From the NCBI GenBank assembly GCA_963730605.1, contig CAVSSM010000008.1:1-45621 (forward strand): DNA of 45,621 nucleotides, read 5' to 3'. A program made the position numbers and the translations under genes. The notes below the pieces were generated by a model. That model was not told where the DNA came from. It was given only the letters and a program-made list of their open reading frames with translations, and searched no databases. Positions 21,926 through 23,413 of the stretch are shown here, in pieces. Source of the stretch: an uncultured Chlamydiae bacterium (GTDB lineage Bacteria; Chlamydiota; Chlamydiia; Chlamydiales; SM23-39). Each line of letters opens with the position of its first letter. Positions within the stretch are counted from its first letter, which is position 1.

Positions 21926-22376
21926 AGAAGATTTTTCCGATGAACCGCTCGTCAATCTCACTCCGCTGATCGACGTCGTTTTCGTCGTCTTAATCAGCTT
22001 CATATTGATCGCCCCCATTTTAGATATCGATTCGGTTGCTTTAGCCCCAAGCGGCCCCTCAAGCAAAAAAGAATCCCCGGCGGTCCAAAACAGCTCGCTT
22101 TCGATTTCGATCCGGTTGGACAACTCGATCTGGTTCCAAGGCCAGCGGATGAATCTTGAAACTCTCGAAAAGCATCTTTTGCTCGAAAAAAAGCGGCGGC
22201 CGACTGAAGTGCCTCAGGTGATCCCTGACGCCCGCTCTCATTTCGAAACTTATGCCCAAGTAAAAAATGTTTTAGAGGCTTGCGGCTTCGAGCAAATGGA
22301 CATTGTTCTTAGACCGCCGTCAACCACCCCTGCCTCAATGCAGAGGCTTGAAAGGAGACTAACAAGCCCTAGTTGA
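21897..22376 (+). CDS. tolR: TolR/ExbD; the last 18 residues are read through into the inserted element (reconstructed native end ...DIVLRPP*)
   Basis: NLTPLIDVVFVVLISFILIAP TM motif; the tail STTPASMQRLERRLTSPS is encoded by the omega-RNA 5' end. Confidence 0.9.
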   Translation: MRRRRLQLLEEDFSDEPLVNLTPLIDVVFVVLISFILIAPILDIDSVALAPSGPSSKKESPAVQNSSLSISIRLDNSIWFQGQRMNLETLEKHLLLEKKRRPTEVPQVIPDARSHFETYAQVKNVLEACGFEQMDIVLRPPSTTPASMQRLERRLTSPS

Positions 22377-22585
22377 CCAGACTAAGCTATCCAAAAGATA
22401 GCTACGTTGTATAGAGGCCAAAGACCCACGGCAGAATGCTTCCTCAGTTCTGCCCTCTGGAAACTCTGGTTGCAGACAAGCGATAGGGTAAGCACGAAAC
22501 GGACTGGAGTACGTGCCGCTATATAACATTGTCGAGGGGAGCGAATCGAAAGATTCCGTTACAAGGCCCGTAAGGGCATTTTTTA
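22319..22585 (+). ncRNA. omega-RNA / HEARO-type scaffold (3' end approximate)
   Basis: GTCAAC (22319-24) pairs with GTTGAC (22372-77); GGCTTG/CAAGCC stem; GTTGACCAGACTAAG...CTACGTT; GGCAGAA-TGCTTCCTCAG-TTCTGCC hairpin whose loop is complementary to GAGGGG in AACATTGTCGAGGGGA; terminal GCCC-GTAA-GGGC hairpin; directly upstream of a PLMP ORF. Confidence 0.85.
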
Positions 22586-22593
22586 GAAAGATT

Positions 22594-22668
22594 ATGGCCG
22601 TATTTGTAGTAGACAAACATCAAAAACCCCTGATGCCCTGCTCTGAAAAGAGAGCGCGGCTTCTTTAG
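22594..22668 (+). pseudogene. iscB: iscB N-terminal stub (PLMP/RRXRR region), 24 aa
   Basis: Translates to MAVFVVDKHQKPLMPCSEKRARLL*, the characteristic IscB/IsrB N-terminus; no RuvC or HNH sequence remains. Confidence 0.88.
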
Positions 22669-22684
22669 TTTCCGAGAGGATCCG

Positions 22685-23413
22685 ATGAAATGGATTTGGA
22701 TCTGGTTTCAGAGCCTTTCCCGTTTCAGGCAAATCGGGGTTGTCTCTCTCGGCTTCCACGCCGTTCTCATCCTGATGCTCCTCATCAACCATATGGCAAC
22801 GTATCGTCCTCCCGTAAGACGGCCCATTCAAGTCCGCATGAAGGCAGCCCCCACCTCCAGCCCGGCTGTAGCCGCAAACAACAAACAAGCCGCTCCTGCC
22901 AAAGCAAAAGAGACCAAGGCAAAAGAGATAAAGCAAGCCATAGCGCCAAAAACAACCCCCCAAAAGATGCCCAAAGCAGGCAGGGAAAGCCATCAAGCAG
23001 CCTCTGTCGATCAAAATCTTTTGCAGCAAATCGTGGATAGCTTAGATGCCATTGGCGCACCGGAAAAAAAGGCTGTGAAGCCATCCCATTTTGCGCCTCG
23101 CTTGCCCCCCTCCATTGAAATACAGTCAGGCGGGCAGGCAACCGAGACACGACCTGGATATGGGGAAACCGTATCGGCGATCTTGCAAAGCAACCTGGAT
23201 CTTCCGGAATTCGGGCAAGTGGTGGTAAAGATCGAGATCAATGCGATTGGCTCAGTGACCCAATGCGAAATCTTGCAGGCGAAGAGCCGGAAAAACGGCG
23301 AATTCCTGAAAAAGCGGTTGCGAGAGCTCGTCTTCCCATGCTTTAATGAATTTGGAATCTTAGAAAACCATTTAAATTTTACCATTACTTTTCACAATGC
23401 GGAAAATCGTTAG
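22685..23413 (+). CDS. tolA: TolA/TonB-like energy transducer
   Basis: Single TM with S-x3-H (VSLGFHAV), Ala/Lys/Pro-rich linker, TonB-C-like domain; lies between tolR and tolB. Confidence 0.75.
   Translation: MKWIWIWFQSLSRFRQIGVVSLGFHAVLILMLLINHMATYRPPVRRPIQVRMKAAPTSSPAVAANNKQAAPAKAKETKAKEIKQAIAPKTTPQKMPKAGRESHQAASVDQNLLQQIVDSLDAIGAPEKKAVKPSHFAPRLPPSIEIQSGGQATETRPGYGETVSAILQSNLDLPEFGQVVVKIEINAIGSVTQCEILQAKSRKNGEFLKKRLRELVFPCFNEFGILENHLNFTITFHNAENR

Follow-up and report, generated by a model that had tools for sequence, protein, structure and literature searches.

IStrons are IS605/IS607 elements with a group I intron that splice out, and in IS608 a guide in the DNA of the element pairs with the target; the HEARO RNA (RF02033) was reportedly presented by Weinberg et al. 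in 2009. The ISC transposons ISC1-1_MA, ISC2-1_HM, and ISC2-1_MS (Kapitonov et al. 2016, PMC4810608) have, according to the accessible part of that paper, GT..CG termini, subterminal hairpins, iscB but no tnpA, and insert 5' of ATGA without duplication; the accessible main text contains no occurrence of start codon, stop codon, operon, or Shine. For the IscB/omegaRNA (OMEGA) element of Geobacillus stearothermophilus, the accessible part of the report by Meers et al. (10.1101/2023.03.14.532601) gives the TAM TTCAT, a guide derived from the host DNA that lies 5' of the element and is no part of it, excision that requires intact ends, pairing of the DNA guide with the ATGAA/TTCAT target, and PATE-like gene-less copies, and it describes an orientation bias with respect to upstream genes only, not landing on start codons or translation signals in the ends. 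In the genes 38 and 25 of phage T4 a stable hairpin lies between the Shine-Dalgarno (SD) sequence and the start codon and has been proposed to bring the two together (PMC7297116, accessible part), and the SD remarks in the accessible part of PMC9581776 concern the SD of the isrB gene itself. Neither start-codon landing nor translation signals in IscB ends were found in the literature searched, which included the accessible parts of PMC13565253, PMC13180657, and PMC9755519, with Weinberg 2009, Altae-Tran 2021, and supplements outside its scope; the family-level pattern presented here is apparently unpublished.

The window, that is, the whole 45,621-nt stretch of DNA analysed, comes from the 83% complete genome of an uncultured Chlamydiae bacterium (G000) and carries, by a Pfam search, tolQ, tolR, a tolA-like gene, tolB (23397–24740), and pal (24737–25471) in this order. 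On the plus strand, as are all features described below, tolR (ExbD/TolR; PF02472, E 2e-18) occupies 21897–22376 and the intact tolA-like gene 22685–23413; the latter is called tolA after its position between tolQ/tolR and tolB/pal, its own Pfam match being only TonB_C with E 0.049, and its N-terminus is the same as in the closest relative, G003. An internally deleted ISC/IscB element of 366 nt with the termini GT..CG lies between them at 22319–22684, directly before ATGA(A) (22685–22689), the target/TAM, which is at once the tolA start codon and the former tolR stop. A sequence-only reading of this DNA had proposed an insertion exactly at an ATGA stop/start overlap, with no target duplication and with a new tolR stop provided by the element, and the three points hold: deletion of 22319–22684 restores ...AGA CCG CCA TGA, no other breakpoint pair tried around the two ends does so, no target duplication is present, and in translation tolR runs for 159 codons to the TAG at 22374–22376 instead of 141, the additional 18 codons being read from the element. 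The empty site itself is seen in G003 (L003, tolR 89% identical in amino acids), where the junction reads ...AGACCGCCA TGA AATCGATTTGG, in its GTGA version in G001, and in a metagenome contig (run X5) that joins 22318 to 22685, skips exactly the 366 nt (GT..CG), and differs from tolA at seven positions across 158 nt. None of the 29 relative loci compared, which come from a set of 39 relatives matched by tolR, has the insertion or the tolR extension. An ATGA overlap, expected by the sequence-only reading in relatives, occurs in 8 of the 29 loci, and a 4-nt tolR/tolA overlap of any kind in 11 of them (8 ATGA, 2 GTGA, 1 TTGA); in the window, where that reading noted the same overlap style, there are 11 ATGA and 2 GTGA overlaps among the main ORFs. 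The dN/dS values show no relaxed selection on either gene: tolR has 0.14 between the window and G001, equal to that between G003 and G001, and tolA has 0.29 against 0.28 in the same comparisons.

The proposed identity, ends, and ATGA target of the element are confirmed by the termini, by the empty sites, and by the full-length RF02033 match at 22319–22547 (HEARO/omegaRNA scaffold; 109.8 bits, E 9e-24, above the gathering score), which begins exactly at the first base of the element. The omegaRNA-side end (22319–22350) consists of GTCA, a hairpin at 22327–22346 seen in the fold of the minus DNA strand, and CTTG at 22347–22350, which together with TTTC at 22669–22672 we take to be the DNA guides by the IS608 rule. 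Downstream of the scaffold lies a 24-codon iscB stub (22594–22668; PLMP/RRXRR N-terminus, PF14239, E 9e-6), whose stop is 16 nt before the tolA ATG, so that of an iscB with PLMP, RuvC, and HNH domains only these codons remain and the copy is a deleted derivative rather than an intact member. The last 18 nt (22667–22684), recognized by comparison with intact ends, hold the putative guide TTTC and an SD-like GAGAGGA (22674–22680) and lack the subterminal hairpin, the 5' arm of the outer stem, and the SD of the family; no hairpin appears in the DNA fold of this ATGA-side end (z −0.5), while one is present in the relative L161. Relatives with 86% identity are about 1.65 kb long and encode a full-length IscB of 450 aa, and a 97% identical contig (run X7) runs past 22666 with sequence resembling the next iscB codons; thus about 1.25 kb appears to have been lost, the inner junction 22666/22667 being known from this assembly alone, with no spanning contig among the matches listed. 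Since the in-frame TAA that most relatives have at codon 6 (22335–22337) is TCA in this copy, tolR gains its 18 residues. By analogy with 10.1101/2023.03.14.532601 (accessible part), the 3' end of tolR (22299–22318; about 20 nt, an assumed length) is the predicted omegaRNA guide segment, if co-transcribed.

Compared with the known systems, the copy shares with ISC elements the omegaRNA at the 5' end and insertion beside a 4–5-nt target without duplication, and differs from the transposons in the accessible part of PMC4810608 in that it has lost most of iscB and one hairpin, the one at 22327–22346 being the only one left. It is not a PATE or another mobile gene-less IS605 derivative, as it lacks a hairpin and is a single copy accompanied by a 33-bp end scrap. 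Its full-length RF02033 RNA is an orphan, the sole HEARO match in the genome, in which neither a full-length parent nor an intact iscB was found at 83% completeness. The locus is shown to be an internally deleted relic of an IscB/omegaRNA element (ISC, N|ATGA target). It is probably immobile, since one transposase hairpin, that of the ATGA side, is missing and excision of the element in the accessible part of 10.1101/2023.03.14.532601 requires intact ends. A promoter and terminator scan gave results at chance level. Elsewhere in the genome there is a weak partial Y1_Tnp match (C2:395536–395697, L328; E 3e-5, model positions 68–120) in a 293-codon frame. The 33-bp omegaRNA-side scrap (C11:64562–64594, L148) has the TAAA loop of the family intact, lies directly after a host AAGGAG, and has no further element sequence behind it; C2:258284–258333, which is followed by ATAAAA, and C1:105713–105751 match the ATGA-side end profile weakly (13 bits, E 0.1) and are of the TTCATC type.

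For the family survey, element loci were collected from named genomes, from 401 genomes of the phylum and 301 of a different class, and from metagenomes and viral contigs; ends were located by a profile and empty sites were then rebuilt. The profile was trained on ends before RTGA, which makes the share of ATGA circular but not the share of start codons. Profile matches below 10 bits (of 196 matches in all), duplicates by flank, 17 matches without target or guide, 2 GTGA ends, 4 ends whose target is probably another one (L098, L112, L284, L285), and 24 ATGA ends without the other end or enough flank were dropped before counting; the tree rows L152 and L101, with very long branches and probably not IscB, were ignored. 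The elements are related to each other, so p-values overstate significance. No match was found in E. coli genomes, and no Rfam family covers the ATGA-side (downstream) end in the three loci searched. It is also worth mentioning that 11 Ralstonia phage records match the omegaRNA end, which in phage Heva (MT740742.1, L329) stands before an IscB-like ORF annotated as hypothetical.

The enrichment of ATGA-target insertions at start codons, anticipated in the sequence-only reading, is evident: both ends and sufficient flank are available for 80 distinct ATGA sites, of which 57 are start-like (the ATGA opening a frame of at least 60 codons as its first ATG), 16 have no frame, and 7 look internal, whereas start-like ATGAs number 257 of 1912 in the same flanks and 2503 of 21,196 in the window genome. 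The share is 24 of 28 in chlamydial loci and 33 of 52 in others; metagenome loci are at start-like sites in 19 of 34 cases, a Malikia genome has all seven copies at gene starts, and in 12 annotated plasmid loci an annotated start adjoins only three of the five ATGA ends and none of the three GTGA ends. Two sites called internal by the frame test (L105, L124) are true starts by comparison with protein families. NCBIfam matches were obtained for 22 of 37 downstream proteins, hand-picked from 82 with an ORF of at least 60 codons and mostly chlamydial and from Malikia; 21 of the 22 begin at the N-terminus of the family, the exception being internal (murF, L110), and the genes with an element at the N-terminal start include dnaA, nusA, purB, purM, sdhB, hisH, trpF, and folP. 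Most copies sit between the gene's own SD and its ATG. Two elements in different genomes (L088, L115) precede similar ORFs beginning MKIPFRKFHLL.. and MKLPFREYHLL.., possibly independent insertions at the same start codon.

The putative DNA guide agrees with the target. By the pairing rule of IS608, TTTC in the window copy matches ATGA, TnTC accompanies ATGA in 100 of 110 ends, and the guide follows the target elsewhere, with CTTC at GTGA, TACC at ATGG, and TTTT at ATAA (L292, L295, L298, L267, L259, as well as the ends at ATAA). A possible start codon opens three of the four targets seen (ATGA, ATGG, GTGA, ATAA).

Of 84 distinct ends at the omegaRNA side, 72 have an early stop, within six codons and in the frame of a gene ending at the ATGA, while the two remaining frames have such a stop in 4 and 8 ends; it is formed by the hairpin-loop TAAA/TGAA, and its frame could be a one-in-three accident of the fixed geometry of the end. 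At the other side, iscB of the long elements stops between −60 and +1 relative to the ATG in 63 of 78 cases (37 at −20 to +1 and 26 in or near the hairpin), earlier in 11, and past the ATG in 3, and it is broken in 1 further element. Two of the three that read past the ATG are in frame with the host gene, and where both frames are open 23 iscB genes stop at the target and 2 fuse. In L128 (G412:C46) the iscB frame stays open into a gene that resembles gabD (succinate-semialdehyde dehydrogenase) and may thus be an IscB–host fusion.

The downstream signal is of another kind than had been supposed. A conserved SD next to the ATG, proposed in the sequence-only reading for the right ends of such elements, finds no support in the survey: it adjoins the ATG in 6 of 57 element ends as compared with 31 of 57 native upstream regions, and a direct SD was rejected as a family trait. 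What is conserved in chlamydial ends is an AAGGAG/GGAGG box about 50 nt upstream of the ATG, immediately 5' of an outer stem within which the transposase hairpin lies. A bridged SD of −5 kcal or stronger is present in 32 of 35 distinct chlamydial ends, as compared with 1, 3, 0, and 1 of 35 for control windows taken upstream. In the outer stem six of seven pairs change on both sides, with 89.5% pairing; covariation of the whole structure is 0.50 against 0.18 after shuffling, and none of 500 shuffles reaches the score, which kinship can inflate. With the stem collapsed, GGAG lies 8–10 nt from the ATG in 23 of 33 ends, as compared with 48–57 nt in linear distance, a spacing that still exceeds the 5–8-nt peak of the window genome; predicted accessibility of the SD is only 0.5. 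The chlamydial ends thus show an SD parted from the AUG by a conserved stem at near-normal folded spacing, and we infer that in intact ends of this kind the upstream SD and the covarying stem form a hairpin-bridged (split) ribosome-binding site (RBS) for the host gene. Elsewhere the picture is weaker: in non-chlamydial ends an SD at the proximal stem (14 of 66) is no better than in controls (26, 17, 7, and 8), and a distal arm defined post hoc reaches at least 5 bp in 36 of 43 ends, with an SD in 31 of 43 against 4 of 43 decoys, two of three example folds not forming it. The earlier notion that the elements bring a stop upstream and an SD downstream holds in spirit, although the SD is not in the last bases of the element. 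As compared with the T4 genes in the accessible part of PMC7297116, the hairpin would here be an end recognized by the transposase, about 45 nt long and interrupted by an internal loop, standing before unrelated host genes.

These patterns could also have arisen with no dedicated RBS, if the elements hit any ATGA(A) and only copies at start codons survive, AAGGAG and the outer stem being a DNA end read by TnpA or a partner of TTCCTCC and downstream translation being served by iscB coupling or weak sites. The pairs of the outer stem are purely Watson–Crick, so it could equally serve the DNA strand, and it shows no strand asymmetry; in the inner hairpin a preference for the minus DNA strand is seen, with 65 A.C against 26 G.U on the plus strand. 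Furthermore, GGAG has its complement in TTCCTCC, for which most ATAA ends have TTCATCC, the iscB stop is close to the ATG in the proportion given above, and plasmid copies are less enriched. Against this explanation, which we regard as somewhat unlikely, speak first the ends at ATAA targets, which keep the stem and have an SD in 1 of 8: six of the eight fall into two separate groups, each of them sister to ATGA elements that bear the SD (tree support 99 and 100), the SD being lost or weakened in two independent lineages. Secondly, GGAG occurs in every one of the iscB frames (16, 7, and 6 ends; 2 non-coding) and is kept in the gene-less copies L162, L163, and L166 before nusA and other genes. 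Thirdly, ends without a bridged SD often carry a direct one, found in 11 of 101 ends, only 2 of which have both. Finally, a simple survival model, based on start and intergenic sites only and on a crude gene set, predicts 20–33% starts, against the 24 of 28 seen. The three gene-less copies, omegaRNA elements of about 360–385 nt, have retained both ends in intact form and lie at gene starts, L166 being the one before nusA.

In the window copy the bridged SD is absent. The claim that the internal deletion kept an RBS-like piece may hold for GAGAGGA at 22674–22680 and fails for the conserved SD region of the family, which is lost here. GAGAGGA pairs with the anti-SD, taken in its generally known form for all pairing scores, at −5.8 kcal/mol as compared with 0 at the empty site, and GAGAGGA and the later TAG may replace the two family signals, SD and early stop, that this copy has lost; that tolA is now initiated through GAGAGGA, by re-initiation behind the 24-codon stub, or in both ways is a reading we slightly favour. 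GGATCC at 22677–22682 in the remnant can pair with GGATCT at 22700–22705 in early tolA and could partly mask the SD.

It is unlikely, but deserves consideration, that the 18-nt remnant is a scrap of iscB left by two deletions, or an assembly error, rather than a true end (...TTTCCGAGAGGATCCG), its SD likeness being accidental or selected later. In the stub frame the remnant reads *FPRGS, like the conserved GFPRG motif, and the closest full-length relatives end TTTCC-TTGCCGTC..., unlike the remnant. Moreover, no intact end with the same tail was found: of 401 genomes only that of the window has TTTCCGAGAGGAT..ATGA, no element end in the viral contigs carries it, and 27 tail-matching stretches were set aside as chance matches, the 18 distinct ones among the matches listed having no end hairpin. 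On the other hand, the AG before TTTCC is also found at the ends of L161, the closest relative, and L184, whose FPRG codons differ from the remnant, and the GFPRG motif needs a Gly codon there. The guide-to-ATG spacing of 12 nt is the modal value (42 of 110 ends), a terminal G is typical (85 of 104 ends), and other ends carry GAGG/GGAG tails (L068, L171, L209, L252).

The excess of 24 of 28 over the crude model suggests that further factors act, be it the need for host transcription (10.1101/2023.03.14.532601, accessible part), repair signals, or targeting. Active targeting, in which the machinery would prefer start-codon ATGAs through longer pairing or locally single-stranded DNA, independently of later selection, could account for the seven of seven Malikia copies and for that excess, and an A at +5 occurs in 28 of 35 chlamydial ends as compared with 269 of 730 starts in the window genome. 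ATGAA alone, however, raises the expected fraction little, there being 269 start and 1026 intergenic ATGAA sites in that genome, and plasmid and viral copies are less enriched; we regard this explanation as rather improbable. Least probable by far is that ATGA steers the elements to translationally coupled junctions and that their ends conserve a direct SD, as the sequence-only reading supposed: the window locus fits and 13 of 54 start sites are coupled against 18 of 251 in the flanks, but the background in the window genome is 203 of 1331, the chlamydial share is 6 of 23, 41 of 54 start sites are uncoupled, and the deficit of direct SDs described above is against it; coupled-junction targeting was rejected as a family trait.

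The explanation that we prefer, with a probability of roughly 0.7 as a whole, is that the locus is a stranded, non-autonomous IscB relic of a family whose signals could repair host translation. A non-autonomous IS200/IS605-type IscB element would have been inserted 5' of ATGA by a Y1 transposase acting in trans, the ATGA probably being chosen by pairing with the DNA guide of the element, a known mechanism with which the observed covariation of guide and target agrees. Intragenic insertions would be purged, the omegaRNA would depend on host transcription, and the element's signals could repair translation, a combination that may cause surviving copies to pile up at start codons. The signals would be three: a stop about five codons into the element, in frame with the gene that used the ATGA as its stop; an SD 5' of the covarying stem, brought to 8–10 nt from the host ATG as the mRNA folds; and, where the copy is full-length, an iscB stop that coincides with that ATG or comes shortly ahead of it. 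In the window copy the early TAA would have mutated and a deletion of about 1.25 kb would have taken the bridged SD and the hairpin together with most of iscB, a loss that should have immobilised it. The translation patterns of the family ends are observed in the sequences, their function being deduced from them; as a mechanism the family-level pattern appears plausible, and we hold it for probable.

Taken further, ATGA-targeting IscB elements might be translation-neutral cassettes, with a TAM that is a start codon, a stop at one end, and a hairpin-folded split RBS at the other, a generalization for and against which we would give even odds. Like IStrons, which are named in the accessible part of PMC4810608, they would be elements of the IS200/IS605 type that limit harm to the host gene; unlike IStrons, they appear to supply translation signals, and an Rfam scan found no intron family in the window element. 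The locus itself is an ordinary relic, of value as a stage of decay in which both family signals have been lost while the dN/dS of tolR and tolA remains unrelaxed. If the cassette reading is true, such elements could sit before essential genes (dnaA, nusA) and obtain their guide RNA from the transcript of the host, as a splice-free counterpart of IStrons. It would also account for the ATG within the common IscB TAM, and it would explain how host transcription is obtained for the omegaRNA without destroying operons. One and the same sequence would then serve as the substrate of the transposase when it is DNA and fold into a ribosome-binding structure when it is RNA, and split RBSs, so far described from few cases, would be represented here by many natural variants with sister-lineage controls.
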